Source: an uncultured Planctomycetota bacterium (lineage in GTDB: Bacteria; Planctomycetota; Planctomycetia; Isosphaerales; Isosphaeraceae). From it: a stretch of DNA of 64,000 bases. Both the position numbers and the translations under genes were made by a program. The stretch lies in assembly GCA_963823665.1 (NCBI GenBank), contig CAWGMQ010000005.1:640001-704000 (forward strand). The letters run 5' to 3'. This document shows, one piece after another, positions 1 through 57,528 of the stretch; the stretch's first letter is position 1, and each line of letters starts with the position of its first letter. The notes beneath the pieces were generated by a model. The model saw only the letters and a list, made by a program, of their open reading frames with translations. It was not told where the DNA came from and did no database searches.

Positions 1-3685
<3,685 letters not shown>

Positions 3686-6899: not shown

Positions 6900-7381
6900 T
6901 CACTCCGAATCGCTCCTCCGCCCCAAACTGTTGATCGTGCTGGCCGTCGCGTAGATCAGGTCTGGCATCACAGGTCCATCGGTTCGATACGCGCCGGTGC
7001 CTCCCTGATACTTGCGCCCCTGCGACCATCCCAGGATCATGCGGCGACGGAATTTTCGGCTGCCCGTTTCATCCCACCCCCATGTGCCGTCGATCGCGCG
7101 CCGGCCCTCGCCGCGGCCGTACGGAACACCCCCGCCGACATAGTAGCCAATCCCACCCGCGGTCCGGCTCGTTTCCAGATGCCCCGACAGCGACCGTGGG
7201 TAGCCGTGCGCTCGTCCGTGTGCGGGATCCATCGCGGCTTCCCCGGAGGAGGCGTTCCTTCTTTTTTCTGGAAGTGCCGCTCGAAGAAGTTCGGATGCTC
7301 ATCCTGTCCATCCGCGCACTCGACGCCAGGGCCGATCGCAACCAAGCCGGCGGCGCCAAGCATCACAAAATATCTGTACAT
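6900..7381 (-). CDS. Secreted hypothetical protein (frameshift near 7205)
   Basis: Signal-peptide-like N-terminus in ORF 7037..7381 continues in ORF 6900..7232 (GYYVGGG...GTWGWD...YQGGTGAYRTDG). Lies 25 nt downstream of the heme-binding gene in the same orientation. Confidence 0.6.
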
Positions 7382-7406
7382 TAGCGGTCTCCGACATTCG
7401 GATCAG

Positions 7407-9533
7407 TTACTTCCGCGGCGCAGGTAGCGGCGGCTTGATTGGCGCGAGCGAAACCGGCGATCGATTGGCCGGCAAGTGTGGATTACGGTTGTACTTGAAA
7501 TACGGCAGACGAATTCCCCGAACTTTCACCTGGTCAGCCCGCTTGATCGTTCGCGGCGGTCCGTATGCCATCGACGCAACCGAAGTGACGTCGTCGTCCT
7601 GGAGCACCCCGTCGCCGCTGACCCCGAGCCCGCCGACGAGCTCGTTTCGCAACGCGCCGCCGTTCGTGTCCTTGTACAAGGGAGCGCTGCCGGGAAAGAG
7701 CACCACGCCGTTCTGGTTGTACATATTTGCGGAAGTAATTACTTGATGGAAATTCGTGTTGGGGTTGAAGTCGTTGTAGCCTTGAATGCTCTGGAAAGCC
7801 TTGGCCGGCAGGGGCGCGCCCTTGTTCGTTGCAAATTTCGTCACGCCGCCGTCGGTGAGGATCGAGCCCGGACCGGGGGGATCGGTGTCGATGCCCTCGG
7901 GGAAGAACGGCAACGAGAGGTAGCGGAAAGTGCGGGCAGTGAGTGCGGTGCCCGCGGGGACGCCTTTGATCTTGTCGATTGGCTGGAGCTGGCTGGCATT
8001 ATCGTAGTAGGCCAAATTGCGAGCCTTGGCAACAGCCACTCCGATGGAGAAATAGGTCGCATCAGGCATCCGGTAGAGGCCCAGGATATTGCCATTCTCG
8101 TCGCTGACGGCGAAGACCATCTTCGCCGGGACGTTCAGTGGCGTGCGGATCTGCGAACGGATACTGTCGGCCTCGGCGATTCCCCGCGCAACGATCGCCT
8201 CCACGTCCGCCGCAGTCAGGTTATCCCCTGGCATGGTGTGCGGTGTCACCAGCCAACCGTACGGTACTCCTTGACCGGCGAGCAGCGTGTCGTTCGCCGC
8301 ATCGACCGGCTCGTTGGTGCCGTCATTCGGATTCCCCACGCCGAGCGTTGCTCCGAAGGTCAACAAGTGATTGAGCCCTTCCAATCCGCCAGGTCCGAAC
8401 AAGTTGAGGGTGATGCCTGCAAGATCGATCCGGCCGAAAGGCTCGGTGAAGTTCGGCAGCGCCGGCGCGCCGTTGATCGGGCCGTTGAATGGAACGCCGG
8501 CCATCTTGCTCCCACCCGCGGCCACGAACGCCATGTATTCGCCGATTTGCGCGTAGTCGGGCTTCTTGTGATTGGTGACGAGCGGTGTGTTGAGAGGTGA
8601 ATTCTCTTCCGTCGCAAATCCGGTCGTACCCGGAAAGAAGACCCCGATCCCGCCCACTTCAGCGGGTTTTCCGTCGGGCTGTAGCTTGTACAGCGGCACA
8701 CCGCCGGGCAAGGTCGCGATTCCTCGGGCCTGTGCCGTGGGCAGGATCCCGGTCACCTGTCCATAGGACTCCGGCGCAACCAGGTTGCCGCCTGCCGGAA
8801 TGTACTGCGCCGGTACGTTGAACCGTGTACCCGTCAACGGGCTGATGCTGTCGCGGTTGGTGCTCTCGATGTCGTACAGGTCGACTTGCGGCGTGAACAT
8901 GATACCTGGCGGAAAATGGCCCTTGATCCCCACCGGCGCCACGAATCCCGGTCCATAGAGCGTCGAGTTGCCGTTGTCGCTAGGTACGTCCGGATTGGAA
9001 TCCACCTCACGCTGCGTGATGGTGGTTTGACTGATTTGCTGGATCGTGCGCGATGTCAAGGGCGCCTGGTCATTCCCGAAGTATGCCCCCGTGCGCGCCA
9101 GCGAGACGGCGCCGTCAATCGCGAAAACTTTGTTGACTGTGTTGTTGGTGATTTCGCTCGACACCCCGCTCTCGACGCGCACGCCGAGAATCGTGCCATT
9201 CCTGTCCACCACGGCGATGATGGCGTTATTCACGCCGGCGGCGGCCGCGGCTCGCTGGAGGAGTGTGCTCACATCCTGCTTAGTCAACACTTGATCAGCC
9301 ATTGGCGGAGCCAGCGGGTTGTCGGGATTCGTCGGGTCGTAACCGTGCACCCCGGAGGCGATCAGCGCCCCGCTCGTGATCGCTTGCCGTTTGGCGGCCG
9401 CGCGCGCTGCTTGTTCCTTGGCGGCAGAAGACGCGCTCAACAGCTCCCGCCGTTCGAGGCAGCCGACTCCAGGAACGAGTGCGCGATCGCGCCGCGCTCC
9501 GACGCGCGCTCTGCGGAATGCCGACCACCCCAT
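7407..9533 (-). CDS. Secreted tandem GlcG/HbpS-family heme-binding protein with LEPR-xLL N-terminal motif
   Basis: Basic N-terminus plus CLERRELLSA. Two GlcG/HbpS-like domains: IAVVDRNGTIL...AVSLARTGAYF...LPGGVPLY...GGIGV and FAVSDENGNILGLYRM...AVAKARNLAY...FPGSAPLY...GGLGVSGDG. Start placed at ATG 9533. Confidence 0.78.
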   Translation of the reverse strand: MGWSAFRRARVGARRDRALVPGVGCLERRELLSASSAAKEQAARAAAKRQAITSGALIASGVHGYDPTNPDNPLAPPMADQVLTKQDVSTLLQRAAAAAGVNNAIIAVVDRNGTILGVRVESGVSSEITNNTVNKVFAIDGAVSLARTGAYFGNDQAPLTSRTIQQISQTTITQREVDSNPDVPSDNGNSTLYGPGFVAPVGIKGHFPPGIMFTPQVDLYDIESTNRDSISPLTGTRFNVPAQYIPAGGNLVAPESYGQVTGILPTAQARGIATLPGGVPLYKLQPDGKPAEVGGIGVFFPGTTGFATEENSPLNTPLVTNHKKPDYAQIGEYMAFVAAGGSKMAGVPFNGPINGAPALPNFTEPFGRIDLAGITLNLFGPGGLEGLNHLLTFGATLGVGNPNDGTNEPVDAANDTLLAGQGVPYGWLVTPHTMPGDNLTAADVEAIVARGIAEADSIRSQIRTPLNVPAKMVFAVSDENGNILGLYRMPDATYFSIGVAVAKARNLAYYDNASQLQPIDKIKGVPAGTALTARTFRYLSLPFFPEGIDTDPPGPGSILTDGGVTKFATNKGAPLPAKAFQSIQGYNDFNPNTNFHQVITSANMYNQNGVVLFPGSAPLYKDTNGGALRNELVGGLGVSGDGVLQDDDVTSVASMAYGPPRTIKRADQVKVRGIRLPYFKYNRNPHLPANRSPVSLAPIKPPLPAPRK

Positions 9534-9933
9534 CGCTTTAGGTCGCCTCCATGGCCTTGATTCCTCATCGATTGAAGGCACACAGTGACGCATGAACACG
9601 AGGGAACCAACCCGCGTTTCGCGAGCGATTGCGCAAGGGTTCTTCTTCCCCCCCAACACCCTTTGATCGACACGCTTCGCTGCCCGCCATGATCATTTTT
9701 TCCCGGAGATCTGTCGTAGTCGGAATAATCACTCGATTTAGCCTAATCGACAGAATCGTCAATGTGCCGACTTAACGCGGCCGATTTCTGATGGACAGCG
9801 TAACGCACGTCTTTCGGGTTGCGCCCGCTCGTGGTGGAGCGACGACAATCCTCTCTCTCACAATCCAATCACTCATCGGCCACACGTCATTCACGACCTC
9901 GTTCCCGTGGAACGGGGCGAGGGCCTGTTCTTG

Positions 9934-11804
9934 ATGGGTCTGCCCAAGTTAAGTCAACGCTTGGTCTGGGTCGCGCTGGCAGCCGTGCCGATTTTCGGCT
10001 GGTGCTGCGCGCTAGCGCGCGCGCAGGACGACGAGATCTCACCACGACCGAGCATGCTTGCGCGCCGATCGACGCGGCGCGACCCGAGAGTCGGCTTCCA
10101 TCGCTCTTTCACTCGGAACCGCTGTTCCAGTTTCCCGACGACCCGCCCATCGGCTACACCGGTCCTTCGGGCGTCATGCCGACGGAGGTCCAGGAATCGG
10201 ACCATTTCGTTCCGGTCGAAGATCGCTGGCGCATGGGCTACCCCGCCTGGGACCGGTATGGCAAGGGCCATCCAATCACCGATGACTACCCGTATAGCGC
10301 CGGACGCTGGTTCGATCCGTACAACCAGAATGTGTTCAAGGGCGATTATCCGATCATCGGCCAGCATACGTTTCTCGATATCACATCCGTCGCCAACCTC
10401 GACTTTGAAGCAAGGCAGGTCCCCACCCAGACCACGCCGTTCGAGAGCACCGAACGCCCGTTCTCCGGGAACTTCTTCGGTCGGCCCAACAGCTTCTTCA
10501 CACTCGATTTCTTCTCGATCGCGTTTGATTTGTTTCACGGCGATGCGGCCTTCAAGCCGGTCGACTGGCGCATCAAGCTGACGCCGACCTTGGGCGTCAG
10601 CAACTTTTCGTTCAGCGAACTGGCGCAGACCAGCCCGAACGTCGCCCAAGGCACGATCCGTACGCGAGAAGTGTGGGCGCTTCAAGAAGCGTTCGTCGAG
10701 TACAAGCTCGCCGACTTCGGACCCGACTATGACTTCGTCTCCATTCGCGCGGGCACTCAGCCATTCAACGCCGACTTCCGAGGGTTCCTGTTCTTCGACC
10801 AGAACCGGGCCATCCGGCTCTTCGGCACAAACTTCTCGAATCGCGATCAGTTCAACATCGTGTATTTCCGTCAGTGGGAAAAAGACACGAACACCGGCCT
10901 CAACACGTTCAACGATCGCCGCCAGAATCTCGTGTTCATGAATTATTACCGGCAAGACTTCATCTTCCCCGGCTACACGGCCCAGGTGAGCCTGAATTAC
11001 GACAACGACCCCGCGTCGATCAAGTATGACAAGAACCGCTTCCTGGTACGTCCCGATGCCGATGGCGATTTTCAACCCCACTCGGTCAACGTGGGCTATT
11101 TCGGCTGGGCTGGCGACGGGCACTGGGGCCGCTATAACCTCACGCACCAGTTCTACTGGGCATTCGGCTATGACAGCTTGAACCCGCTGGCCAATCGGCC
11201 GCAAATCATCAATGCTCAGATGGCCGCGATCGAGGGCTCGTACGACCGCGACTGGGTGCGGTTTCGGCTCTCCTTCTTCTGGGCTTCCGGCGACGGCAAC
11301 ATCAACGGCACACATGCCACCGGCTTTGATACGATCCTCGATCAGCCCAACTTCGCCGGCGGCGGCTTCAGCTACTGGAACCGTCAGCAGATTGGCCTTC
11401 AAGGCGTGAATCTCGTCCAGCGGCTCAGTCTCGTGCCCGACCTTCGGTCGAGCAAGATTCAAGGCCAGGCAAACTTCGTCAATCCCGGACTGATACTTCC
11501 GACCTTCGGCATGGATTTCGAGGTTACTGCCAAGACGAAGCTGATCACCAATTTCAACCTGCTCTGGTTCGACAAGACGAATGTCTTGCAACAATTTCTC
11601 TATCAGGGAAACATCGATCGATTCATTGGCGGCGATATTGGCTTCGGCCTCGAGCACCGGCCTCTCTTGAGCGAAAACGTGCTCTTTGTCGGCGGCGTTC
11701 AGATGCTGATCCCGGGGCAAGGATTCCGGGATATCTACGACAGCTTCAACGGCCGGGTTAACGCCCTGGTCGCCGGCTTCATCAACGTTGTCTTCACGTT
11801 CTAG
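9934..11804 (+). CDS. Probable outer-membrane beta-barrel protein (frameshift near 10060)
   Basis: Signal peptide ending ALARA-QD in ORF 9907.. joins ORF 9819..11804. Aromatic-rich amphipathic strands (LQEAFVEYKL, FVSIRAGTQPF, VRFRLSFFWASGD) and a C-terminal INVVFTF with terminal Phe. Confidence 0.7.
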
Positions 11805-11910: not shown

Positions 11911-14900
11911 ATGCCGAGATTCTCCGCGGGTGCGTCATCGCGCCTGCGAGCAACCCATGCGCTGCCGCTGGCGACCTTCATGCTGCTGGCCGTCCTCTTC
12001 GGCACACCTGGCCGTCACGATGGCGGAGCCGCGCGCGCTCAGTCGGCTGGCGGGGCGCAGGCACCGGGCGCTTCCACGCCCACCCGGCAACCGGCGAGCG
12101 AGCCGTTCCCCGTGCCCGAAGAGCTACGCGGCCTCGATCTCTCGCGACAAACCCCCGAAGCCGCGGCGGCCAAGAGCGCCGGCTGCGTCGCGTGCCACCA
12201 AGGACAGCACGACCCGCACTCGAAACCCGAAACCCTCAGGCTCGGTTGTGTCGACTGCCACGGCGGAAACCCTCAAGCCGCTGACCAGCAAACAGCTCAC
12301 GTCTGGCCCCGGTTTCCCGACGCGTGGAGAAGCGCGGCCAACCCCGTCCGTTCCTACACACTCTTGAACCACGAAAACCCCGAGTTCATCCGGTTCGTCA
12401 ATCCCGGCGACCTTCGGGTCGCCCACCTGAGCTGCGGCACCACCAGCTGCCACGCCGATCAGGTGCTGCAGGTGCGCACGAGCATGATGACTCATGGAGC
12501 CATGCTCTGGGGCGCCGCGCTTTTAACAATGGCTCCGTCCCGTTCAAGCGGGCCCGCTATGGCCAGAGCTACAGCATGAACGGAGCACCGCAGCGGCTCC
12601 AGACCGCCCCTCCGCCTACTCAATTCGAGATGGAACACAAGGGAGTCGTGCCGTTCCTCGACCCCCTGCCCCGTTTTGAGGCCTCCCAGCCCGGAAACGT
12701 CTTGCGCATCTTCGAGCGCGGCCGGCGCGACCCGCAGGAAGTCGGCATCCCCAACCCGCTCGAAGACCCCGGCAAGCCTCGCGCCGGCTTGAGCGCACGC
12801 GGCCTGGGAACCAAGAACCGCACTGATCCCGTTTTCGTCGGCCTTCAGAAGACACGGCTCTTCGACCCGACGCTGAACTTCCTCGGAACGAATGATCATC
12901 CCGGCGACTATCGCTCTAGCGGCTGCACAGCGTGCCACGTGATCTATGCCAACGACCGCTCGAGGGTCAACTCCGGGCCGTATGCCCGCTTCGGCAATCA
13001 AGGACTGTCCTTTCAAGCCGACCCCACAATCCCCCGCAATGAGCCCGGCCATCCCATCAAACACGAGTTCTCAGTGGGGGTTCCCACCAGCCAGTGCATC
13101 GTCTGCCACATTCACCCCGGTACGAATGTGCTCAATTCCTACACAGGTTATATGTGGTGGGATGAGGAAACCGACGGCGAGCTGATGTACCCGAGGGAGC
13201 AGAAATACCCCACCGCGGAAGAATTCACGCTCACGAACATGTCGAACCCGGACGAGAACCGCGGCACGCGGAAACTGGTCGGATCCAGCGTTCCTCGCCC
13301 GCCTCGCCGAACTCAATCCCCAGGCACGACACACCCAGTTCGCAGATTTTCACGGGCACGGCTGGGTGTTCCGGGCCGTCTACAAGAAAGACCGGCATGG
13401 CAAGCTGCTCGACCACCGAGGCGAAGAAGTTGTCAATGATTCCACGGCCGCGCTCATGGCGGCCGTCGCACTACCTGCCGAGCAGAAGGAACGATATCGC
13501 ACCGGTAACGCCGCGGCCGTACAGAGAGCCTCGTTCGAACGCGCCGAGTCGAAACGCGACGGCCTGCCGGTGCACCAGCTCGATATCCACCTCGAGAAAG
13601 GAATGCATTGCGTCGACTGTCATTTCATTCAGGACGCCCACGGCAACACCAAACTCTATGGCGAGGTTCGCGCGGCCATTGAGATTCAGTGCGTCGACTG
13701 CCACGGCTCTCCCGGCCAGCGCGCGACCCTCATGACCAGCGGCCCCGCTTCCGACACCTCCGCCGCCGAATCCGGCAAGGAGGGCCGTGATCTCACCGTG
13801 TTCCGCACCCCGTTCCGACAGCGGAGATTCGAGCGGCGTGGCGATAAGATCATCCAGCGCTCCATGGTTGAATGCGACCTCGAGTGGGAGATCACCCAGG
13901 TCGCCGATACGATCAACCCTCGCTCCGAGCACTACAACGAGCGCGCAGCCCTGGCCAAAACCGTCCGCTTCGAGAATGACCAGATGGTGTGGGGCGACGT
14001 TCCGAAAGATGGTGAAAAGGCCTGCGCGCACGCCAGCGCCAAGATGAGCTGCATCGCCTGCCACTCGGCCTGGAACCCGAGCTGTTTCGGCTGCCACCTC
14101 CCCCAGCGCGCCAATCGCAAGATGCCGCAGCTCCACAATGAGGGAGATGTCACCCGCAATTATGTTTCCTATAACTTCCAGACGCTGCGCGACGACGTGT
14201 TCATGCTGGCGAAGGACGGCGACGCAACCGCCAACCGCATCGGTCCGGCCCGCTCGTCGTGCGCGATCCACGTGGGCTCGTACAACCAGAATCGCGAGTC
14301 GATCTACGTTCAGCAGCAAACGATCTCCGGCGACGGCATGTCGGGAATCGCGTTTAGCACCAACGTGCCCCATACCGTCAGAGGCGGCCCGCCGCTCATC
14401 CACGATCCGGAACACGCCCAGAATCCCAAGAACGGCCGGCCGCCTAACCCGGGTGCTTATCTGCCGGGCCACTCCGACACCAAGATGTGCACCGACTGTC
14501 ATCTCTCGAAAAACGGCGACAATAACGCCGTCATGGCCCAACTTCTGATGCAGGGCACAAACTATGTGAATTTTATCGGGCGCTACTGCTGGGTCACGGC
14601 GGGCGACCACGGCCTGGCGGCGGTTGTGGTCACCGAGCGCGATGAGCCGCAGGCCGTCATCGGCAGCTCGCTGCACCAGCTTGCTTATCCTGATAATTAC
14701 AACAAGCACCTTCAGGCTGAAGGCAAGCTGAAACACTCGCACGAGCACTCGGGCCGCGACGTCGCCGAGCGCATCCGGCGTCCGGAGATCCTTTCGATTC
14801 AAGCACGCGGAGAATACCTCTACGCCGCCTGCGGCGAGTCCGGCCTGCGCGTCTTTGACATCGCATTCATCGACCACAAAGGCTTCTCCGAGCGAATTGT

Positions 14901-15942
14901 GACGGCGCCGGTCTCTCCGCTGGGACAGCGGTTCTTCGTGCGCACCTCCTACGCCACGGCGGTCGCAGCGCCGGCGACGATGGCCCCGGACCCGACACGC
15001 CAGCATCAGCCCGGCAACAACGAGCAGAGTGTTCACGCGATGTATGGCTACCTCTATGTCACGGACCGCGATGAGGGCTTGATCCTCGTGCCGGCCGGTA
15101 CACTCTTGGACGGCAACCCACTCAACAACTTTCTCGGCCGCGAGCTCACCTTTAACCCCGACAAGATCCTGAGCGGCGCTCGGGCCATCACGATCGTGGG
15201 AACCTTCGCGTTTATCTCCTGCAACGCCGGCATCGTCGTCGTGTCGCTCGATGACCCGAAGCACCCCGTGGTAACGTCCGTGCTCGGCGAGCCGTTTCTG
15301 AACCATCCACGCGCAATCCAGGCCCAGTTTCGCTATGCCTATGCATGCGACGCCGAGGGGATCAAGATCCTCGATATCACCGACCTCGCGCACCCGCAGC
15401 CTGTGTCGAAGCTGCCGATGCGAGACGCTCGCGGCATCTATCTCGCACGGACCTACGCCTATGTTGCAGCCGGGGCCGAGGGGCTCGTCATCCTCGACAT
15501 TGAGCGTCCCGAGGAGCCCAGGATCGACCAGGTTTACACCGCCGACGGCTGCATCAACGACTTGAATGACGTGAAGCTCGGAATCACGTATGTTAGCGAG
15601 TTTGCCTATCTGGCTGATGGCGAGAACGGCCTGCGCGTCGTGCAGCTTACCTCGCCCGAGACGCCGGGGAACTTCGGCTTTAGCCCCCGGCCCACACCTC
15701 GCTTGATCGCCAGCTTCAAGCTGCCGCTGGGAGCCAAAGCACACGCCATTTCAAAAGGCGTCGACCGCGACCGTGCCGTCGACGAGTCTGGCAATCAGGT
15801 CGGTGTGTTTGGCCGGGTGGGCGCGCGGCCCTTGAACGCGGAAGAACAGCGCAAGATGTACATCCACAACGATCGCGTCTGGACCGTGAGCGACGACCCG
15901 CTCGATGCGGTCTACAAGCGTGTTGCGAACCCGCCGCGATAG
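11911..15942 (+). CDS. Large multiheme cytochrome c with C-terminal LVIVD-repeat beta-propeller (frameshifts near 12523 and 13257)
   Basis: Three overlapping ORFs join into one protein of about 1340 aa with a signal peptide. Heme motifs: CVACH, CVDCH, CGTTSCH, CTACH, CIVCH, CVDCH, CVDCH, CIACH, CFGCH, CTDCH. LVIVD-type repeats: YAYACDAEGIKILDI, YAYVAAGAEGLVILDI, FAYLADGENGLRVVQL. Confidence 0.85.
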
Positions 15943-15974: not shown

Positions 15975-16744
15975 TCAGAACTGATAGACCTCTCCCGGCC
16001 GGCCGATTCGCAGGCCCGGCATGTTCAGCGCGTGAAGCTCGGCCACAACCTGCTCATAGAAACGCGGCTTGATATGGACGGCGATGAATGGCACCGGCCG
16101 GGAAAGCTTGCGCGCCTCGGCAGCAAAGGTGGCGGGGGTCAGGTGTCCGGAGATCATCGCCAGCTCGGACATGGCGTCGGGAAACGACGCCTCCAGGAAG
16201 ACGGCCTTCAAATCGGGAGACGCGCTCGCCATCCGCCAGAACGAATCGGTCGGCCGCGTGTCGGAAGGAATCGCCACCATCACTCCAGGCGATTCGACCA
16301 GGAACCCCAGTGTCGGAACGACGTGATCAACGGCCAGCGGCGTGATCCGCAGACCGCCAGCCTCGACGGGACACTCCGGCTCGAGCGACTCGAGCCTCAC
16401 GAACGGTGTCCCTTTTCCGACATCTTGACGAAGTCGGGCCACACCCGATCGTTGAACACATCATGTCTCAAGCTTGCGAGCGTTGCCGCGCTGCCGTGAA
16501 CCGTGATGCAGCGCCCTCCCGATTGAAACACCGAGTCCAGCAAGATCGGTAGTGACGCGATGTGGTCAAGGTGACTGTGCGTGATGAAAATGTGCTCGAT
16601 TCGTTGCTGAGCCTGGAGATCGTCAATGAGCCCCAGGCCACCCGCGTCGATCGCGACGACTTCATCAATCAGGTAAGACGAGAGGAAAAACCCGGGATTT
16701 CCGCCCCCCACCGAGACGGCCGACGGAACGAGCGTGATCTTCAC
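15975..16744 (-). CDS. Class II (metallo-beta-lactamase fold) 3',5'-cyclic-nucleotide phosphodiesterase (frameshift near 16410)
   Basis: GTG start after GGAG. Motifs IDAG, ITHSHLDHIASL, FNDRVWPDF, VDHVVPTLGF, SDT, EASFP, GHLTP and VHIKP across ORFs 16397..16825 and 15975..16442. Confidence 0.85.
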
Positions 16745-41966: not shown

Positions 41967-42080
41967 CAAAACCCAACCTGCTGGGCCATGCCGCGCCACT
42001 TTCCATTTGCACAATCGTCACCCGGCCCGAATTCCCTTTCACCGCGCCGGACCGTCTACAAATTGTACCACAAACACGGA

Positions 42081-44771: not shown

Positions 44772-44775
44772 GCGC

Positions 44776-46494: not shown

Positions 46495-47487
46495 ATGCTG
46501 GTCTTCGGTCGTGAGAACTGGCGAGCTCACCTTCCCTGGTGTGTGGCAATTCTCGCGGCAACGGCGGCGGCGGCGGTTGGTTACATCGCTTACGGGTTCA
46601 GCGCGGGCTCCTGGAGCCCGCCGGGAGGCGCAAGCCCGCCAGGGTTCGTCTACGGGCTCGCGGGCGGCGCCATCATCTTGTTCGAAATGTTGCTCTGGCC
46701 GCGAAAATCGCTCTGGCGCGGCTGGCGCCTCGGCAGGACCAAGCTCTGGATGACGGCCCACATCTGGCTCGGGCTCTTGACCATTCCCTTGCTGCTTTTG
46801 CACGGCGGCTTTCATTTCAGCCTCGGCAGAGCCACCCTCGCCGCGGTTCTGATGTGGCTCCTGGTCCTCGTGGTCGGCAGCGGCATCTTCGGTCTCGTGC
46901 TTCAGAACATTTTGCCGAAGCTCATCCTCGAACAGGTTCCGGCGGAGACGATCCACGCACAGATCGGGCACATCCTCGAACAGTATCGCGACGAGGCCCA
47001 GCGGCTGGTGGACGTGACCTGCGGCGATACCGAGTCCTCTGAAAGTGGACGCACGATTGCCGCTGTCCCTGATCGGGCTTTCGAGTCGCGTGTCGCTTCG
47101 GGATTGGTTCGTCAGGTCGGCCGCGTTCAGGGCAAGGTGGTGCAGTCGAGCATTGAGGCCAGTTGGGTACCCGGCTCGGAAGACTTGAGAAGCTTCCACC
47201 GCGACCAGGTCGACCCTTACCTTCGCGCCCGTTCCGGAACCCGGATGCGGCTGGGATCGCAGACTCAAGCGAGAGCCATGTTCCAGGCGGTCGAGGCTCG
47301 GCTCCCTCCGGCGGCGCACGACGCGGCGAAGCGCCTGGCGGATTTTTGCGAACAGCGCCGGCAATTCGATCTCCAGACGCGGATCCACTTCTGGCTGCAC
47401 GCGTGGCTGGGCGTTCATGTCGCCCTCTCCGTCGCCTTGACACTGCTGATGATCATTCACGCCGTTCTCGCGCTCGAGTATCTCTAG
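46495..47487 (+). CDS. His-containing integral membrane protein (possible cytochrome b-like quinone-interacting subunit)
   Basis: About five TM helices with His at WMTAHIWLG, LLLHGGF, WLGVHVAL and MIIHAV. Lies 13 nt upstream of a decaheme cytochrome. Confidence 0.65.
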   Translation: MLVFGRENWRAHLPWCVAILAATAAAAVGYIAYGFSAGSWSPPGGASPPGFVYGLAGGAIILFEMLLWPRKSLWRGWRLGRTKLWMTAHIWLGLLTIPLLLLHGGFHFSLGRATLAAVLMWLLVLVVGSGIFGLVLQNILPKLILEQVPAETIHAQIGHILEQYRDEAQRLVDVTCGDTESSESGRTIAAVPDRAFESRVASGLVRQVGRVQGKVVQSSIEASWVPGSEDLRSFHRDQVDPYLRARSGTRMRLGSQTQARAMFQAVEARLPPAAHDAAKRLADFCEQRRQFDLQTRIHFWLHAWLGVHVALSVALTLLMIIHAVLALEYL

Positions 47488-47500: not shown

Positions 47501-49117
47501 ATGAACGGAGAAACCGGCAAACGGCGCCAGTCGCGAATCGAGCTCACGTACTACCAGACCGCCGACTGGTATGTGTGGTGGCGGCGCGGTCTCTGTCTAT
47601 TCGCAGTCCTCGCCGTGGCGATCTGGATCGTGAAATCGGCCATCGCCAGCCGCGGCGCCACGTCTCACCCATGGTTGCCCGTCCCCACCACGATTGCCTC
47701 CAAGGGCCCCCTTTCCCAGCCGCACGCGATCTGGGACTCGACATGCGATGCATGCCACGTTTCGTTCGCCCCGATCAACGGTTCGCGCTGGTCGCCCGCA
47801 CTCTGGGCAAGTAAAGACGGGGGAAGCAAGAAGTGCACCGCCTGCCATGCCGGGCCGGCTCATCATCAGAGTCAGCTAAAGGAATCCGTCCCCGATTGTG
47901 CCGAGTGTCATCGCGACCATCGCGGGCACGATTCGTCTCTCCTCTCCATGGACGACTCGGTATGCACAACCTGTCACCAGAAACTCGCCGATCATCGCGA
48001 TGGGCCTGGCGTGGTTGTGAACATCCCCGACAGCGTGACCCGATTTGACGAAAAAAACCACCCTGGCCTTTCCGCATCCTGGACCGCGCGTGCGAAAGAC
48101 ACGAAGCGAATCAAGTTCAACCACGCAAGACATCGGGCCCTTGGGATCGCGCTCGAAAAGGGCGGAAAACCGTGGACTTTCGCCGACCTCGCGGAACCTG
48201 ACCGAGCTCGGTACGGCTGGAAGGCCGGCGTGTCGCCCGATACTCCGATCAAGCTCGAGTGCGCAGCGTGCCATGAAACTGATGCGAGCGCGGTCGCCAC
48301 ATCAGTCAATCGTGGCTCGCTGAATGCCGGCGAGCCGCGCAGCCCGGGCGCCTACATGCGGCCGATTGTCTTCGACTACCACTGCGCAGCCTGCCATCGT
48401 CTCGAGTTTGACGCCAAGCTGCCGAACGCGACGATGCGCCATGGAATCTCTGCGCAAGAAGTCTTCGCCGATCTGAACCAGCGTTACACCGCGGAGGCCG
48501 TGAGAGCCGATCCAGAACTGCTCAGGCAGTTCGTCCCGCCGCGGCCGATGCCAGGGCAACCTGCTGTGCCCGCGAAAGAGCGGATCAAGCAGGCAGCAGT
48601 TGAGAGTTATTTCACTGCGGCGAGGTTTCTCTTCGCTGCCGCGATCGATGAAAACGTCCGCCGGGCAGCAAAGTTACCCGCAAGCCGGCGAGGATGCGTG
48701 GAGTGCCATGTCCTGAAACCCGGTGCGGGGCCGATCGTGAATCTGGATTCACTCGCATCGATCGAGATTGCACCGCCGCTCATGACGCCCGTCTGGCAAG
48801 AGCACGCGTTTTTCAATCACACGACTCATCGTGCGCTCAATTGTGCCGCGTGCCACGCGGACGTCGATCTGTCCAGGGAAAACGGCGACGTGCCTCTCCT
48901 GCCGGACATCACGAAATGCGTCACATGCCACTCTCCGGCCGGCACGCTGCGCGCGGGTCAGCCCGGAGGCGCAAGCACCTCGTGTACCGAGTGCCACCGC
49001 TATCACAACGGCGACAACCCCGACCAAGGGCTGGGCGCCAGGGCGCGGCGAGGTGCACTCGAGCAGACGCTCGAGAGATTCTTGGGGGGGATGCCAGAGG
49101 CCGGTTCCGCGAAATGA
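47501..49117 (+). CDS. Membrane-anchored decaheme cytochrome c (cytochrome c3-like)
   Basis: N-terminal TM helix. Ten CxxCH motifs: CDACH, CTACH, CAECH, CTTCH, CAACH, CAACH, CVECH, CAACH, CVTCH, CTECH. Distal-His motifs FNHARH and FNHTTH. Confidence 0.9.
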   Translation: MNGETGKRRQSRIELTYYQTADWYVWWRRGLCLFAVLAVAIWIVKSAIASRGATSHPWLPVPTTIASKGPLSQPHAIWDSTCDACHVSFAPINGSRWSPALWASKDGGSKKCTACHAGPAHHQSQLKESVPDCAECHRDHRGHDSSLLSMDDSVCTTCHQKLADHRDGPGVVVNIPDSVTRFDEKNHPGLSASWTARAKDTKRIKFNHARHRALGIALEKGGKPWTFADLAEPDRARYGWKAGVSPDTPIKLECAACHETDASAVATSVNRGSLNAGEPRSPGAYMRPIVFDYHCAACHRLEFDAKLPNATMRHGISAQEVFADLNQRYTAEAVRADPELLRQFVPPRPMPGQPAVPAKERIKQAAVESYFTAARFLFAAAIDENVRRAAKLPASRRGCVECHVLKPGAGPIVNLDSLASIEIAPPLMTPVWQEHAFFNHTTHRALNCAACHADVDLSRENGDVPLLPDITKCVTCHSPAGTLRAGQPGGASTSCTECHRYHNGDNPDQGLGARARRGALEQTLERFLGGMPEAGSAK

Positions 49118-49599: not shown

Positions 49600-49602
49600 A
49601 CG

Positions 49603-50730: not shown

Positions 50731-51107
50731 ACGGCAGTCAATGAAGAGTGGCCGGCACCGGCCTCGGCCCGTGAACCGGTTTGGAGCGCCAAGCGCATTG
50801 CGGGAAGGAGCGAGGCCACGCCCGCTGCAAAGACGAGTCGAGAAATTCGAGCACTCCGCCAGCGATCTGTCTCAACGTCGCTCATGGTAGACTCCAAACG
50901 TGGTGAAGCCTCTTCCAGCACCCGAATGACCGGGAGCGCGATGGACGACCGCAACCGTCTCGCTACCACGCTCAAGCCATCGAGGCGATGCTAGCCTTAT
51001 TCGACTGACGAGCCTACACTCGATGTTGGTTCTCGATTCGTAGTGCGACCGTGGAATTGCCGCAGACTCCGCTTCCGCTTTAGATATTGCCGGGGATTTG
51101 TTTTTTC

Positions 51108-52472
51108 GTGAGCCGACAACTTGCCATCTATGGGGGCAGCTTCAACCCGCCGGGGCTTCATCATCGCGCGACGGTCGAAATGCTGTGCAGGCACTTTGAT
51201 GAAGTCGTGATCGTGCCCTGCGGACCGCGACCGGATAAGCCGGTCACGAACGACGTCGAGCCGATCCACCGGGCGGCCATGGTCGACCTGACCTTTCGTG
51301 CCATTCCCAAGGCCCGCGTCGAGCTCTTCGACCTGGAGTCCAGCACGTTCACCCGGACTTACGACCTCGATCGAAGATTCAGAGCGGAGGGAACGCTCTG
51401 GCATGTCGTCGCCGACGAGTTCGTTCGCCGCGAGCAGAACAACGAATCAAACATTCAACGTGAATGGACGCGAGGACGTGAACTGTGGCAGGAGGCCAAT
51501 TTCGCGATCTTGAACCGTTCTGGAGCTCCACTCGAAGAGGCGGAGCTGCCGCCCCACCGTCGCGTCTTTGAAATTGACCGCGACGGGTCGAGCCTGGTCA
51601 TCCGCAATCGAGTCTTCCATCGCCAGTCGATCGCCGAGCTCGTGGTCAAGGAGGTTGACGCCTACATCCGCCGGCACAGGCTCTACCAGGGCGTCGCCTC
51701 ACCCCGGCAAACGAGACTCCGGCCGGAGAGGCAGAGCTATCTCGTCGTTGCCGATGAGCGCAACGCGGCGTCACGCGCCGTGGCCGATCGACTCGCGGCC
51801 CACAGCGGCAACGATCCCGAGCTGATCGTGGTCGTGGGCGGCGACGGCACCATGCTGCACGCCATTCGTCAACACTGGCGGCTGCGCCTGCCGTTCTTCG
51901 GGATCAACACCGGCCACCTCGGTTTCTTGCTCAACGACTCGCCCGAGGCCGAACCGGACGAGCAAGACCTCGTGCTCTACCATCTGCCCCTGCTGCGGGT
52001 CGAGCTCGAGCCGCTCGAAGGCGGCCAAATCGTCGCGCTGGCGTTCAACGACGCCTGGGTCGAGCGAGCGACCGGCCAGACTGCGTGGCTCAGGCTGCTG
52101 GTCAACGACCAGGAGCGAATCGAGAAACTCGTCGCCGATGGCGTGCTCATCGCCACCGCGGCCGGCTCAACTTCGTATGCCCGCGCGATGGGCGCGACGC
52201 CATTGCCACTCTATACAGCGGCCCTGCTCCTGGTCGGCTCGAATGTGCTGAACCCGCCGCAGTGGCGGCCTGTGATCCTGCCGGCTGATTCCCGGATCGA
52301 GGTCAGGACACACGACCCGGTCAAGCGACCGCTGAACGCGTTCATCGACGGGATTCCCCAGGGCGTCGTGCAAGCGCTTCACGCCCGAGTGAGCAACACG
52401 GCCGCCGTCGAACTGGCGTTTCTGCCCAACAATGACCCGTCGCTCAAATTGGCGAAGCTGCAATTTCCATGA
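51108..52472 (+). CDS. Fused NadD-like nucleotidyltransferase and NAD(+) kinase
   Basis: N-half AIYGGSFNPPGLHH, IHRAAMV, SSLVIRNR and VDAYIRRHRLY. C-half VVGGDGTMLHA, NTGHLGFL, FNDAW and ADGVLIATAAGSTSYA. Confidence 0.88.
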   Translation: MSRQLAIYGGSFNPPGLHHRATVEMLCRHFDEVVIVPCGPRPDKPVTNDVEPIHRAAMVDLTFRAIPKARVELFDLESSTFTRTYDLDRRFRAEGTLWHVVADEFVRREQNNESNIQREWTRGRELWQEANFAILNRSGAPLEEAELPPHRRVFEIDRDGSSLVIRNRVFHRQSIAELVVKEVDAYIRRHRLYQGVASPRQTRLRPERQSYLVVADERNAASRAVADRLAAHSGNDPELIVVVGGDGTMLHAIRQHWRLRLPFFGINTGHLGFLLNDSPEAEPDEQDLVLYHLPLLRVELEPLEGGQIVALAFNDAWVERATGQTAWLRLLVNDQERIEKLVADGVLIATAAGSTSYARAMGATPLPLYTAALLLVGSNVLNPPQWRPVILPADSRIEVRTHDPVKRPLNAFIDGIPQGVVQALHARVSNTAAVELAFLPNNDPSLKLAKLQFP

Positions 52473-52844: not shown

Positions 52845-52858
52845 GACTGCGCAGGCCC

Positions 52859-53167: not shown

Positions 53168-53191
53168 ATCGATGGGCCGGCTGATCTTCGA

Positions 53192-55681
53192 TCAAACGAT
53201 CACGTCTCTAGCGTCGGCCATGCTGCCCCGCACCAAGTCCAGTAACTCGCTCCCCTTCATGCGGTGCGCCGCGTCGTGCGGGCAGGCGTAGACGCAGCTT
53301 GGCTCGTGGCCGGGGCCCAGGCTTGTGCAGACGTCGCAGGTGGTCGCCTTGCGCACTTCGGCCTGGGCTTTCTTGTCGAATTGCTCGACCATGTTGATAT
53401 TGCCATACGGGCAATTCTCAGCGCAGAGGCCGCAGCCGATGCACCAGTTCTCGATGATGATCTCGGCTGACTGGTGGCGGCGGATCGAGCCCACGGGGCA
53501 GCCGACCATGCAGTACGGGTCGAGGCACGATCGGCACGAGCTCGCAACCAGGAACTTGTCGAACCGCAGGCCCTCGCGGATGAGCCGGGTCACTCCTTGA
53601 TGCGTATCGGCGCACGCCTTTGTGCACTCGTCGCAGCGGGTGCATTTCACCAGGTCGAGGACGAGCAGGTTCTGGGCATTCATCAGCCCTTGATCGAGGA
53701 AGGCCTCGAGCGGCTTCGCGTGGGCTTCCCAGACGTGGCGCTGGTTGTCTTCCAGTCGCTTGCGCGCCTCGGCGATCACCGCCGTTCGGAGCGTGGGCGC
53801 TTCGTCCAGGATCGCGCGGAAGTCTTCGGGCGTGATTCGCACGAGGTCGACGTGATCCAGCGCCGCGCAGGTGGCGGTTCGAACGCCGGCCGGGGCCAGG
53901 TCGCGCAGCTCGGGGAGGTCGGAAAGCAGCCCGATCTCACCGATGTACCCGCCGGGGCCAACGTAGTTCAACACCCGGTCTCCTCCGGCGCGAGACTCGG
54001 AGACTTTCACGAAGCCCGTCCTGACCAGATACAGGCCGTCGGTCGCCCGGTCGCCCTGCCGAAAAATCACCTGGCCGGGCTCGAACCGCAAGAGCGAAAC
54101 CCGCGGGCGGAGATTATCCACGACGCGCTGGAATCGCTCCTCGTCGGCCCGCAGGGGCGCGAAAAGGGGAACGCTGCGCAGGTGGCCGTCGATCGTGCGC
54201 GCGCGATACTTCGCCTCGAGCACGCGGCGGAACGACGGACTGCGCTGCATGATGTAAAGGACATTCCGCAGCATCTCCAGGACCGTGCAATCCTCGCCCG
54301 CGGTGACCGTTGCCGAGCGCGGGTAATGGCTCATGCAGGTCATCTCGCCGAAGATGTCGCCGGCCTTCATCGTGGCCTGCGGCCGGCCATAGGGCAAAGC
54401 GACCGGCGCGTCGACGGAGATAAAGTCACGCACGTGGTCGCCTGGGCGCGTCGTCAGCTTGCTGGTGAACCAGCCGATCGCTCCCCAGAACCCCGCGCGC
54501 GGCTGGTTCTCGACATGCTCGACCGGCGTCCGGAGGAAAATGTCGACCGAGCCCTTCTCGATGAAGAAGGCCGTGGCGCCGTTGTCGCCCTCGCGGCAGA
54601 TCACCTCTCCCTTGCGATACACACGGCGTTTGACCGCGTGAATGTTCGATCGCAAGAACGCGTGCGAGATTCCCTGGAACGCCTCGCGAATCTCGGAGAT
54701 CTCGTGCCCGAGCAGATCGCTCACCGAAACATCGGTTCCCTCGGAGAACCTGGTCTCGATCACGCGCTTGTGCGTGAGCGCCCCGGTCGGGCAGTCGTCG
54801 GCGCACTCGCCGCAGGCAACGCAGCTCGATTCGCCCATGGGCGAGTCGAGGTCGAAGGCGATCCGCGCTTTAAAGCCCTTGCCCATCCGGCCGATCACGT
54901 GGTTTTCCTTGATGACGTCGCAACCCCGGACGCAGCGGTCGCAGAGGATGCAGGCGTTGTGATCGACGGCGATGACAAGCGACGAGTTGTCACGCGGAAG
55001 CTCGATCTCGCGGCGCTCGAGCCGCGACTCGGTTGCTCCGAATCGCTTGGCAAGCGCCTCGAGCTCGCACTCGCCGGGAGCCTCCCGTTCCTTGACGCAT
55101 GGTGTGGGATGGTCGGTCATCAACAGCTCGGTCAGCACCTTGACCGCCGCGTGCAGCCGCGCTTTCGCCTTGGCGTCGGGCGATGCGACCGTGTCGACGA
55201 TCATCGTCGGCTCGACGCGATGCTGGCAGGCCGGAATCAGCTTGCGGCCCGGCTCGACGCGATTCGTCCGCTTCGAGTACTTTGAGACCTGCACGACGCA
55301 CACGCGGCAGACCCCCACCGGATCCATGTATTCGCGATGGCAGAGGGTCGGGATTGGATTGGCCGCGTGCAGCAGCTTGTCACGATAAAGTTCGCTGACG
55401 GCGTCATAGATGGTCGTCGACCGCGGGATCACGCGGCCGTGCGCGTCGCGGCGGAAGTTACCCTGCGCGTCGGTCGAGGGCACGGCCTTCTTGACCTCGA
55501 TCTCATGGCCGTCGACGGTGATCTTGATCGTTTCCTCGAGGTCGGCCGCCGTGGCCTTGTCGATGCGGATCAACCGGCCCTCGAAGTCGCGGGCGAAGAG
55601 ATCCTCTTCCTCCCAGACCGGGAAGGTCGCGCGGTCGTCTCGCTCGCGGCCAGGGATGTGGTCTACCGATCCGGCGCTCAT
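53192..55681 (-). CDS. NuoG/FdhA-N-like Fe-S module fused to two cNMP-binding domains and a DmsB/NrfC-like 4x[4Fe-4S] domain
   Basis: [2Fe-2S]: PTLCH..GVCRVCVV..AC. [4Fe-4S]: CILCDRCVRGC and CVACGECADDCP. cNMP domains: ICREGDNG..FGEM..PRSATV and IFRQGD..IGEIGLL..RTATC. C-terminal: CTRCDECTKAC, CRSCLDPYCMVGCP, CIGCGLCAENCP and CDVC..PSCVYACP. Confidence 0.9.
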   Translation of the reverse strand: MSAGSVDHIPGRERDDRATFPVWEEEDLFARDFEGRLIRIDKATAADLEETIKITVDGHEIEVKKAVPSTDAQGNFRRDAHGRVIPRSTTIYDAVSELYRDKLLHAANPIPTLCHREYMDPVGVCRVCVVQVSKYSKRTNRVEPGRKLIPACQHRVEPTMIVDTVASPDAKAKARLHAAVKVLTELLMTDHPTPCVKEREAPGECELEALAKRFGATESRLERREIELPRDNSSLVIAVDHNACILCDRCVRGCDVIKENHVIGRMGKGFKARIAFDLDSPMGESSCVACGECADDCPTGALTHKRVIETRFSEGTDVSVSDLLGHEISEIREAFQGISHAFLRSNIHAVKRRVYRKGEVICREGDNGATAFFIEKGSVDIFLRTPVEHVENQPRAGFWGAIGWFTSKLTTRPGDHVRDFISVDAPVALPYGRPQATMKAGDIFGEMTCMSHYPRSATVTAGEDCTVLEMLRNVLYIMQRSPSFRRVLEAKYRARTIDGHLRSVPLFAPLRADEERFQRVVDNLRPRVSLLRFEPGQVIFRQGDRATDGLYLVRTGFVKVSESRAGGDRVLNYVGPGGYIGEIGLLSDLPELRDLAPAGVRTATCAALDHVDLVRITPEDFRAILDEAPTLRTAVIAEARKRLEDNQRHVWEAHAKPLEAFLDQGLMNAQNLLVLDLVKCTRCDECTKACADTHQGVTRLIREGLRFDKFLVASSCRSCLDPYCMVGCPVGSIRRHQSAEIIIENWCIGCGLCAENCPYGNINMVEQFDKKAQAEVRKATTCDVCTSLGPGHEPSCVYACPHDAAHRMKGSELLDLVRGSMADARDVIV

Positions 55682-57528
55682 GACGATCGCTCCGCAGGGC
55701 CGAGCACCCCGATGTCACTCGAGAACGACTGGAGCACCGTGGAAAGGGGCTTTGCCGCGGACATGCCCAGTCCGCAGATCGAGGTCAGCTCGAGGATCTC
55801 CAGTAGCTCGTTCACCAGCGCTTTGTCACGAGCGAGGTCCTCGGCTGTTGCCTGTCCCCGTGCGATGCGCTCGCCGACGGAGACAAGCTTTTGCGAGCCG
55901 ATCCGGCAAGGCACGCATTTGCCGCATGACTCGTTGCGAAAGAACCGCGAAGCGTTCAGCGCGTGGTCGAACATGTTCACGCCTCGGTCTTCTGCATACA
56001 CGGTGAGTCCGGCGCCGAGCATGAGGTTCAGGGTGCGGAACTCGTCGATGTCGAGCGGCAGCTCGCGGATGTCGAGTGTGTCGCGGCCGGCCGGGAAGTT
56101 CCGCTCGGACCTTGGCCCGACGTCGGCCTTCGAGAGAACGGCGGGGATGAAACCGCCGGAAGGCCCTGACGGCGCAACGGCCTTGAGAGGCAGGCCGTCG
56201 CGCACGCCTCCTGCCAGATCGATCAGCTCGCCCAGGGTCGAGCCGATCTCGACTTCAAAGACGCCGGGCTGGCGCACATCGCCGCAGATCGAGAAAAACC
56301 GCAGCCCCGGCGCGCCGGCTTTTCCTTTGGCGGTGTACCACGGACTTCCTTTGCTACCCGAATCGGCATACCACTTGCCGCCGTTGAGCACGATCGCGGG
56401 AACCCAGGCGAACGTTTCGACGTTCGAGAGCAGTGTGGGTTTGTCGAAGAGGCCGTTGGTCTCGAGCTGGGGCGGCCGGTTGCGCGGCTCGGCCCTGTGC
56501 TCCTCGATGGCCTCGATCAAGGCCCCCTGCTCTCCGCAGACGTAACCGCCGGGGCTGATGAATACCTCCATGTCAAACGGCATTCCGGTGCCGAGCATGT
56601 TCGATCCCAGCACACCGTCATGCCGCGCCGCCGCGAGGGCCTGGTTCACAGCGTGGATCTGGTCGTGATATTCGTGGCGAATGTAGATATATCCATATTT
56701 CGCTCGAACGAGGAGGGCCGCCAGCACCATCCCCTCGATGATCAGGTCGGGCGTGCGCAGGAGGAGCTCGCGATCCTTGAATGTCGCCGGCTCGCTTTCG
56801 TCGGCGTTGCAGACGATAAATTTTTCGTCGCCCCGGGCCTCGAGCACGTCTCGCCATTTCTGTGCCGCGGGAGTGCCCGCGCCCCCCATGCCGCGCAGGT
56901 TGGCGGTTTCGAGCTCGGCGATGAAGCTCGTGCGAACGGCCTGGCGATCCTGTTCACCGGCGGCAGCCTTGAGCTTGCCGGCAAAGTCGCGAGCGGCCTG
57001 GTAGAACCGCGAGTTTGCGGTGGGATCCGTGGCTCGCCCGTAGGGGTCGATCCGCCAGGGTCGCGGCGAGCGATCGACGGCATCGGGCGGCACGTCCTGG
57101 CTCTCCAGGTGCGCCGCGACGATCGTGCGTAACCGCGCGGCAAAGTCGGCAACAACCGGGCGCTCCAGGACGCGCGTCTCTTCCGGCTTTCCCGGACGGT
57201 GCAGCTCGATCAAAACGGCCGGTGCGCCGTCGCAGCGGCCCAGGCACGACACACTCTCGACCTTGACGCGGTTCTCGCCGCCGAACTCGGCCGCGACGGC
57301 CTCGAGCGCCGCGAGGCAGCCAGGTGCGCCGCGCAGGTGGCAGGCGATATCGCGGCAGACGTGCACCTCGACCGGCGGTGGTGGATGCAGCCGGAAGTGG
57401 GGAAAGAAGCTGACCACCTCGTGAATCCGGTGCAGCGGGACATCGAGCCGGGCCGAGAGGCTCTCGAGATCCTCCCGTTTCAGATAGCCGTTACGTTCCT
57501 GGATTGCACGAAGCTGGTGGACGAGCAT
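55678..57528 (-). CDS. Fused NuoE-NuoF-like NAD(P)H-binding flavoprotein
   Basis: NuoE [2Fe-2S]: VCRDIAC...SCLGRCDGAP. NuoF: LRGMGGAG, CNADESEPATFKDR, YVCGEQGAL, ESCGKCVPCRIG and SICGLG. 4-nt overlap (ATGA) with the downstream Fe-S gene. Confidence 0.92.
   Translation of the reverse strand: MLVHQLRAIQERNGYLKREDLESLSARLDVPLHRIHEVVSFFPHFRLHPPPPVEVHVCRDIACHLRGAPGCLAALEAVAAEFGGENRVKVESVSCLGRCDGAPAVLIELHRPGKPEETRVLERPVVADFAARLRTIVAAHLESQDVPPDAVDRSPRPWRIDPYGRATDPTANSRFYQAARDFAGKLKAAAGEQDRQAVRTSFIAELETANLRGMGGAGTPAAQKWRDVLEARGDEKFIVCNADESEPATFKDRELLLRTPDLIIEGMVLAALLVRAKYGYIYIRHEYHDQIHAVNQALAAARHDGVLGSNMLGTGMPFDMEVFISPGGYVCGEQGALIEAIEEHRAEPRNRPPQLETNGLFDKPTLLSNVETFAWVPAIVLNGGKWYADSGSKGSPWYTAKGKAGAPGLRFFSICGDVRQPGVFEVEIGSTLGELIDLAGGVRDGLPLKAVAPSGPSGGFIPAVLSKADVGPRSERNFPAGRDTLDIRELPLDIDEFRTLNLMLGAGLTVYAEDRGVNMFDHALNASRFFRNESCGKCVPCRIGSQKLVSVGERIARGQATAEDLARDKALVNELLEILELTSICGLGMSAAKPLSTVLQSFSSDIGVLGPAERSS

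Follow-up and report, generated by a model that had tools for sequence, protein, structure and literature searches.

Do a nucleotide cyclase, a cyclic-nucleotide phosphodiesterase (PDE), an iron-sulphur (Fe-S) protein with two cyclic-nucleotide-binding (cNMP) domains, three multiheme cytochromes and an outer-membrane barrel, all encoded between positions 6900 and 57528 of one stretch of planctomycete DNA, belong to a single system, and where would electrons go in it? The stretch, hereafter the window, comprises 64,000 nucleotides (G000:C5:640001-704000) of a 16.46-Mb Planctomycetota genome in 12 contigs. In a sequence-only reading, it had been proposed to encode a trans-envelope electron conduit gated by a cyclic nucleotide. 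We report here that the cluster is real, conserved and widespread in bacteria and that, as judged by comparison of its proteins, it is a ptd system of a new form, whose input and outer module differ from those described before and to which signalling genes are linked. On balance, we consider it probable that the cluster acts as a modular line, switched by a cyclic nucleotide, which exports the reducing power of NAD(P)H to the envelope.

Relation to the ptd operon

The open reading frames (ORFs) of the window were scanned with Pfam and NCBIfam (42 ORFs in the Pfam scan), and each part listed in the sequence-only reading was located at its span. The remark that hydrogenase, molybdopterin and complex I membrane subunits are absent agrees with the Pfam scan, in which none of them was found among the 42 ORFs. 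The statement that no characterised system has this composition has to be amended, as it overlooked ptdABCDEFG, an operon which is itself still uncharacterised.

This operon, of unknown function, was named from ocean metagenomes, and its genes were reported as prevalent in marine lineages that include Nitrospirales (Elbon et al., bioRxiv 10.1101/2023.11.21.568154). In the main text of that preprint, PtdA to PtdG are described as a pentaheme cytochrome with a beta-sandwich, a porin, an FAD/NAD(P) oxidoreductase, a tetraheme cytochrome, a cNMP/4Fe-4S protein, a ferric-reductase-like membrane protein and a decaheme cytochrome; cyclase, phosphodiesterase and LVIVD give no match in the same main text. 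A literature search returned no description beyond the preprint, whose journal version or supplements may mention more variants, and the signalling link was not found in the ptd text or in the other papers searched.

Operons with the gene order of the preprint are present at L097, L099 and L101, and L097, which matches that order and the described domains, served as the reference. The window PtdE and PtdF matched their L097 counterparts by phmmer (5e-57 and 1.9e-12, respectively). PtdG was reached solely by an iterated profile (4.9e-74), and PtdD was matched by an iterated profile as well (2e-75), the window protein having four CxxCH and one CxxxxCH motif versus the tetraheme PtdD. PtdA had no match in the window, its best one elsewhere in the genome having an E-value of 1.5e-6 over 185 aa. 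Profile A3 of PtdB found nothing in the genome, and the FNR-type PtdC had no match in a search confined to the window. The possibility that the window barrel is PtdB was rejected, as the two show no similarity (hhalign, 1%).

Thus, like the ptd operon, the window encodes a PtdD-like cytochrome, a cNMP/4Fe-4S protein PtdE, a ferric-reductase-like PtdF and a decaheme PtdG. Unlike it, the window has an input made of NuoEF and a NuoG-like module, an outer module made of a decaheme cytochrome with LVIVD repeats, a barrel and an HbpS-like protein, and an attached cyclase, PDE and kinase. Furthermore, the C-terminal domain of the window PtdE contains 16 Cys for four clusters, whereas two clusters are stated in the text of the preprint.

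Conservation of the cluster as one system

Gene neighbourhoods were compared by tblastn around the best 80 relatives of the window PtdE, all from Planctomycetota or unnamed bacteria, over at most 10 kb on either side of PtdE (many loci being shorter). The NuoEF gene adjoins that of PtdE in 70 of the 80 loci, and the decaheme cytochrome (49), the membrane protein (48), the c554-type cytochrome (46), the cyclase (15), the kinase (13), the barrel (10), the HbpS-like protein (10), the LVIVD cytochrome (8) and the PDE (6) are found near it in decreasing number. Genes of the left block of the window, which lies on the far side of a segment without cluster genes, accompany PtdE in 14 of the 80 loci.

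In the relative G121, both blocks are collinear and 78-92% identical in DNA sequence to the window, the segment between 25.8 and 40.2 kb is missing and the kinase gene abuts that of the cyclase, as it also does in G123, where most cluster parts are found inside ~30 kb. The segment of ~14 kb is therefore an unrelated insertion, and a misjoined contig is ruled out. Outside the Planctomycetota, breadth was assessed on plasmid and chromid records and on 80 metagenome loci retrieved with a Sphingobium query, 29 of which are at least 18 kb long. In Sphingobium, the barrel gene lies ~10 kb from the cNMP/Fe-S gene in all 12 large plasmid or chromid records bearing the latter, and the annotated order runs CHASE2-cyclase ... 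c554, HbpS, barrel, LVIVD, phosphoesterase, PtdG, PtdF, PtdE. The proposal that left and right blocks form one conserved system is borne out by contiguity in G121, linkage in Sphingobium and the 14 PtdE loci. The NadD-NAD kinase fusion (51087..52472, plus strand), which had been counted as a member, is near PtdE in 1/80 loci, that of a close relative, and was discarded as a supplier of NADPH.

Co-occurrence was followed in 121 Planctomycetota genomes of at least 90% completeness. PtdE was called in 29 genomes (E≤1e-40) and PtdF in 37; for the LVIVD cytochrome and PtdB, the counts are 24 and 17, respectively. All 29 PtdE-positive genomes contain PtdF and an outer module, which is the LVIVD type alone in 17, PtdB alone in 10 and both in 2, when 7.9 are expected. 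Either module occurs in 8 of the 92 PtdE-negative genomes, two of which do hold PtdE, below threshold or at the end of a contig. An outer module is present in 35/37 PtdF-positive genomes versus 2/84 others. In several Pirellulaceae-type loci, PtdG is fused to PtdD. The system is a kit of three parts: the NAD(P)H input can be exchanged, the core of cNMP/Fe-S, diheme and decaheme proteins is fixed, and the outer module is of either of two kinds that almost exclude each other.

In one Sphingobium locus (L127:2797-10950), the cluster stands next to genes for a CHASE2 cyclase, for a transporter of ShlB/FhaC type and for a protein of 2092 aa; in L089, too, PtdE is flanked by ShlB-like genes.

Electron input and core

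The place of PtdC is taken in the window by a fused NuoE-NuoF diaphorase of HoxF type (55678..57528, minus strand). Three different flavin reductases fill this slot among the loci, namely NuoEF, the FNR-type PtdC (L097, L107, L108) and, in Sphingobium, a TrxB-like domain fused directly ahead of the cNMP-cNMP-FeS part. Since diaphorases so unlike one another occupy one slot, the partner in the cytoplasm is likely to be NAD(P)H, as had been proposed from the window alone. With the HoxEFU, NuoEFG and formate dehydrogenase (FDH) diaphorases, the window proteins have in common the flavin mononucleotide (FMN) site, the clusters N1a, N3 and N1b and two 4Fe-4S motifs. They differ by the absence of a hydrogenase, an FDH or a membrane arm, by the joining of the NuoG-like part to cNMP domains and by a GEE to GEQ change in NuoF. 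No catalytic or membrane subunit of complex I, hydrogenase or FDH recurs beside the diaphorase across the 80 loci. The GEQ form was observed in 44 of the 54 relatives in which the motif could be located. The second Glu of this motif is tied to the choice between NADH and NADPH (a relation that our literature search did not retrieve), and the change may mean that NADPH is used.

PtdE (53192..55681, minus strand) consists of a HoxU/NuoG-like Fe-S module, cNMP-A, cNMP-B and a DmsB/NrfC-like domain whose 16 Cys would hold four [4Fe-4S] clusters. It is one of four loci with cNMP-domain matches in the genome. In pocket A, the residues G445, E446 and R455 are kept in 43/43 PtdE sequences.

PtdF (46495..47487, plus strand) was modelled as a helical membrane protein with a pLDDT of 88.7. 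Hydropathy and charge pattern indicate five transmembrane (TM) helices with positive-inside loops and a cytoplasmic insert of ~150 residues. The residues H89 and H103 in TM3 and H308 and H322 in TM5, each pair being ~14 apart, are invariant in 49/49 sequences. Two stacked bis-His heme sites are therefore predicted, placed as in diheme proteins of ferric-reductase type. In the NOX/ferric reductase (FRD) superfamily and in MsrPQ, electrons pass from NAD(P)H and a flavin through two stacked bis-His hemes on TM3 and TM5 to an acceptor outside, and a layout of this kind is predicted for the window proteins. PtdF differs by its five TM helices and large cytoplasmic insert, by a feed through a cNMP-bearing polyferredoxin and by the lack of a structural match.

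The hand-off from PtdE to PtdF was examined by modelling PtdE residues 315-820 with PtdF and two hemes, no solved PtdF homologue having been found from which the arrangement could be copied. The complex scored 0.70, whereas none of three controls exceeded 0.01, with a contact agreement of at least 56% and a partner pLDDT of at least 77; the mark for such models is reached by 116/157 solved pairs versus 2/215 mismatched ones and is only roughly applicable to PtdE-PtdF. In the model, PtdE residues 677-685 and 798-803 face PtdF residues 82-86, 137-145 and 301, beside H89, and the terminal 4Fe-4S cluster (ligands C680, C683, C686 and C800) is seated on residues 82-86 and 137-145. This model supports binding of the two proteins, and the hand-off suggested earlier from an Fe-S protein to a membrane protein gains to this extent a predicted contact on a transmembrane diheme.

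The membrane-anchored decaheme PtdG (47501..49117, plus strand) has ten CxxCH motifs and ten conserved distal His; it is wire-like and 24-47% identical among loci. The PtdD-like c554-type cytochrome (44776..46270, minus strand) combines its five heme motifs with five conserved distal His. The earlier count of 10, 5 and 10 hemes holds if one CxxxxCH is counted in the LVIVD protein and one in the c554 protein.

From these parts, the following path can be proposed. The NuoEF flavin would oxidise NAD(P)H, and electrons would move, within PtdE, along the NuoG-like clusters and on to the ferredoxin domain with four clusters, of which the terminal 4Fe-4S would dock onto the cytoplasmic heme b of PtdF. 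The two PtdF hemes would carry them over the inner membrane to PtdG and pentaheme PtdD, and the outer-envelope module would receive them and reduce a periplasmic or external substrate.

Some variants of the core were also observed. In P0123 and P0125, a PtdF-like membrane domain is fused to a TrxB-like reductase in a protein without cNMP domains, possibly an ungated relative. In L098, L102, L103, L109 and L222, cytochromes with 15 and 17/18 hemes flank PtdF-PtdE, and no reductase gene is nearby. A second c554-type pentaheme of the genome (L124:10049-11659, on G000:C7) is 43% identical to a paralogue that lies in the cluster in other Planctomycetes.

Outer module and end of the proposed electron path

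The outer module of the window has no detectable sequence kinship to PtdAB. It comprises an exported protein of HbpS/GlcG-like heme-binding fold (7407..9557, minus strand; PF03928), an outer-membrane beta-barrel (9934..11804, plus strand) and a decaheme c-type cytochrome of ~1330 aa with a signal peptide and C-terminal LVIVD repeats, which probably form a beta-propeller (11911..15942, plus strand). The barrel was modelled with 18 strands and has AlgE as best match (Foldseek E 1e-17), its N-terminal 100 residues not being resolved in the model. The N-terminus of the HbpS-like protein is of LExRxLL type in the window and a lipoprotein-like signal in Sphingobium. An HbpS-like gene is found in 27 of the 29 long LVIVD loci.

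Where the electrons end can be weighed from the LVIVD protein and the barrel. A first alternative departs from the proposed line solely in where electrons stop, the inner-membrane part being identical: the LVIVD decaheme-propeller would be a terminal reductase in the periplasm, the barrel a channel through which its substrate or product passes, and heme or metal would be handled by the HbpS-like protein. This is a serious contender, although we do not hold it to be the probable one. It is consistent with the AlgE/OprD-like fold of the barrel, suited to small solutes, with the many invariant non-heme residues and surplus invariant His of the LVIVD protein, and with PtdAB being an interchangeable alternative end module. 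It also finds an echo in the Geobacter ExtHIJKLM proteins (selenite/tellurite reduction according to NCBIfam), which, as in the window, combine a small barrel with c554-type and larger cytochromes. The likeness to ExtM and ExtKL is weak and far under the cut-offs (74.9 bits for the LVIVD protein versus a cut-off of 800 for ExtM), and the Ext system has no cNMP/Fe-S chain. On the other side, the LVIVD protein was not seen to have a catalytic heme motif such as CxxCK, its profile found no relative in the PDB from which a reaction could be assigned (0 matches), and its Atlas look-alikes are uncharacterised cytochromes only.

A second alternative is a conduit of Mtr type, in which the LVIVD decaheme would thread the barrel and reduce minerals or humics as terminal electron sink; a conduit for extracellular respiration is among the options offered for ptd in the preprint (10.1101/2023.11.21.568154). 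Barrel and LVIVD genes are adjacent in 74/80 metagenome loci, lipoprotein-like signals are present on some LVIVD and HbpS members, and the conserved His suffice for ten bis-His LVIVD hemes. MtrCAB-type conduits likewise pair decaheme cytochromes with an outer-membrane barrel. MtrB has 26 strands, and the 18-strand AlgE-like barrel of the window is narrower. Furthermore, the window system would be fed by NAD(P)H and not by quinol, no quinol-oxidising subunit being encoded in the cluster, and the hosts include genera known as aerobes. The LVIVD protein is also far more conserved (41-68% identity among loci, 47-49% across phyla) than the wire PtdG, so that an enzyme or a fixed partner fits better than a plain wire. 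An Mtr-type conduit is thus unlikely, and we rate an electron end at a periplasmic LVIVD enzyme with a solute channel somewhat above a crossing of the outer membrane. The porin-cytochrome put forward in the sequence-only reading stands as an outer-membrane barrel beside a multiheme cytochrome, a filled conduit of Mtr type not being established with 18 AlgE-like strands.

The uet cluster of Tenderia was rejected as an instance of the same system, its LVIVD protein not being described as a cytochrome in the available text on that cluster.

Cyclase, phosphodiesterase and kinase

The cyclase of the window (40206..42014, minus strand; PF00211) is a class III enzyme with FHA-like and GAF domains, in which both metal-binding Asp and the transition-state N/R pair are intact. 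Of four class III cyclase matches in the genome, it is the best one. Its best PDB match is Cya2, a guanylyl cyclase with the specificity pair E/G (PMC4215837, PMC5995499). The window enzyme has D/G at these positions, as have 12 of 16 aligned cluster cyclases, and K/T is found in the other 4 (four loci of one family) and in the Sphingobium CHASE2 cyclase, where it is the adenylate pair. The earlier suggestion of cGMP as the signal is therefore to be narrowed: with D/G and Cya2 as closest match it is plausible in this lineage, not in general, given that D/G is a non-canonical pair and other lineages carry adenylate cyclases with K/T.

The PDE (15975..16744, minus strand) has the metallo-beta-lactamase fold of class II enzymes, an HxHxDH motif and a PF02112 score of 48.3 bits versus a cut-off of 23.7. 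Its profile scores RNase Z and yeast PDE1 about equally, and the cyclic-nucleotide substrate is putative. Only one match to its N-terminal half, the cluster copy, was found in the whole genome. With so few cyclase, PDE and cNMP-domain matches in 16.5 Mb, the grouping of these genes is not fortuitous. A PDE occurs in 18/29 PtdE-positive versus 10/92 other genomes. The Ser/Thr kinase with tetratricopeptide repeats (22612..25812, minus strand) is a candidate activator of the cyclase, through the FHA-like domain.

That cyclase and PDE stand beside the cluster, as first noted in the window, recurs with differing domain make-up in two phyla. Of the other 36 PtdF-positive genomes, 10 encode a cyclase no more than ~20 kb from the core; the cyclase profile was built in part from these loci, which makes its ranking circular but leaves the gene positions unaffected. 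Among the 29 long metagenome loci, 10 contain a cyclase and 12 a metallophosphoesterase, for which SpdA is the best match with a score under its cut-off. In G058, PDE and cyclase directly adjoin a canonical ptd operon. Cyclase-adjacent loci are found in at least four separate clades of the PtdE tree, which is unrooted and was displayed with a midpoint.

As further observations, G058 holds both this ptdAB-type operon and an LVIVD-type cluster (L216, L222), and L098, L102, L103 and L109 bear an FHA protein or similar ORF, a K/T cyclase and a PDE.

Proposed gating and direction of electron flow

In the proposed line, the signal would be made by the cyclase, under control of the kinase and of the cyclase's FHA-like domain, and removed by the PDE. 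Binding of the cyclic nucleotide to PtdE would set whether electrons flow, because both cNMP domains lie between input and output in one chain. Of the cNMP-gated conduit of the sequence-only reading, the single system with cyclase and PDE beside it is upheld, and gating itself is what we infer from domain order and conservation.

Several observations weigh against this reading of the cluster. The sampled genomes are related, and kinship inflates the co-occurrence statistics. Some PtdE/NuoEF pairs are far from cytochrome genes (L081/L082), and the fetched loci of several PtdE clades contain no reductase gene. Fold searches with PtdF found only generic helical bundles and no ferric reductase or NOX match, and PF01794 is matched by 6/49 PtdF members (best 9.5e-6) and not by the window PtdF. 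Finally, ~72% of PtdF-positive genomes have no cyclase beside the core, FHA/GAF cyclases are common (78/121 genomes at E≤1e-60) and pocket B, intact in the window PtdE, is decayed in one clade, the ptdAB-type PtdE.

The absence of an adjacent cyclase from most genomes and the decay of pocket B would also be expected if the cNMP domains were structural or bound a non-cyclic ligand (AMP, a redox metabolite), with cyclase and PDE as loose neighbours, and cyclase-PDE pairs do occur away from the cluster in G034, G092 and G108. This explanation is improbable in view of the invariant G-E..R pocket A, of the recruitment by different clades of non-homologous PDE folds and different cyclase sensors, and of the position inside the cluster of the single-copy PDE of a 16.5-Mb genome.

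As to direction, an inward flow from an external or periplasmic donor to NAD(P)+ would be compatible with the reversibility of diaphorases and with the prevalence of ptd in Nitrospirales and other marine lineages (10.1101/2023.11.21.568154), but it is very improbable, as electrons would have to come from a donor with a potential far lower than that of NAD(P)H and enter against the membrane potential, and the cluster has neither a bifurcating flavoprotein extension nor an ion pump.

We infer that electrons move outward. If no protons are pumped on the way, outward flow from NAD(P)H would dissipate membrane potential, as in NADPH oxidases. Such expenditure would account for a tight control and speaks against a respiratory chain that conserves energy. 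A switched export of reductant similar to that of NOX, at a cost in energy, is thus our best reading and would fit better than respiration. More tentatively, and with somewhat less than even confidence, the cGMP (elsewhere cAMP) of a kinase-cyclase relay may switch the Fe-S wire of a bacterial counterpart of the regulated NADPH oxidases, equipped with an exchangeable enzyme module at the surface.

Assembly and accessory genes

Several genes of the window are split by single-base frameshifts: the LVIVD gene twice (near 12520 and 13260), the PDE gene (16412), the c554 gene (near 44953), the ORF at 6900 (near 7206) and probably the barrel gene, whose signal peptide lies in another frame (before ~10100). 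In short-read contigs, one additional base is present at 12520 (run X4) as well as at 16412 and at 17063 (both run X1). Those of X1, including a 488-base contig across the PDE gene, show no further differences. These three frameshifts are most likely errors of the long-read assembly. The short-read runs may derive from the source sample itself and do not count as independent evidence of the cluster. That the PDE and LVIVD genes are pseudogenes is disfavoured, as the three covered frameshifts are absent from the short reads and intact relatives exist.

The gene at 6900..7381 (minus strand) encodes a small secreted Gly-rich protein with a GxWGWD motif and is found beside the HbpS-like gene in Planctomycetia (7/111 loci); an intact relative of it gave no NCBIfam match. 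Among the accessory genes, that of a secreted Gly/Asn repeat protein (17033..20856, plus strand) is kept with the cluster only in close relatives, and an uncharacterised exported protein (21007..22458, minus strand) is encoded downstream of the kinase. A GH63/MGH1-like glucosidase (42081..44774, minus strand) is present in 4/80 loci. The insertion contains a GT4 gene, a DUF1559 prepilin-like gene, a frameshifted ECF-sigma/WD40 gene, an IS701 remnant and a gene for a carboxypeptidase-regulatory repeat protein. Between PtdG and NadD-NadK, a DUF433 gene and a small partner overlapping it upstream (49231-50061) are a probable toxin-antitoxin-like pair. SRPBCC, TspO and class II photolyase-like genes (3420-6585) form a light/oxidative stress trio adjoining the cluster, and two tandem chain-length-determinant-like genes are located at 57744-60225.

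Biological significance

The ptd operon, of unknown function, can now be viewed as one form of a modular kit alongside which cyclases and phosphodiesterases have repeatedly been recruited. If the proposed switch is true, an electron-transfer chain would be gated by direct allosteric binding of a cyclic nucleotide in ~30% of the sampled Planctomycetota genomes and in Alphaproteobacteria, and the few bacterial Cya2-like cyclases would be supplied with a target. A single protein unites reductase, sensor and ferredoxin in a host available in culture, Sphingobium herbicidovorans (NZ_CP020539.1), and cyclic-nucleotide gating of an electron wire becomes concretely and cheaply testable.

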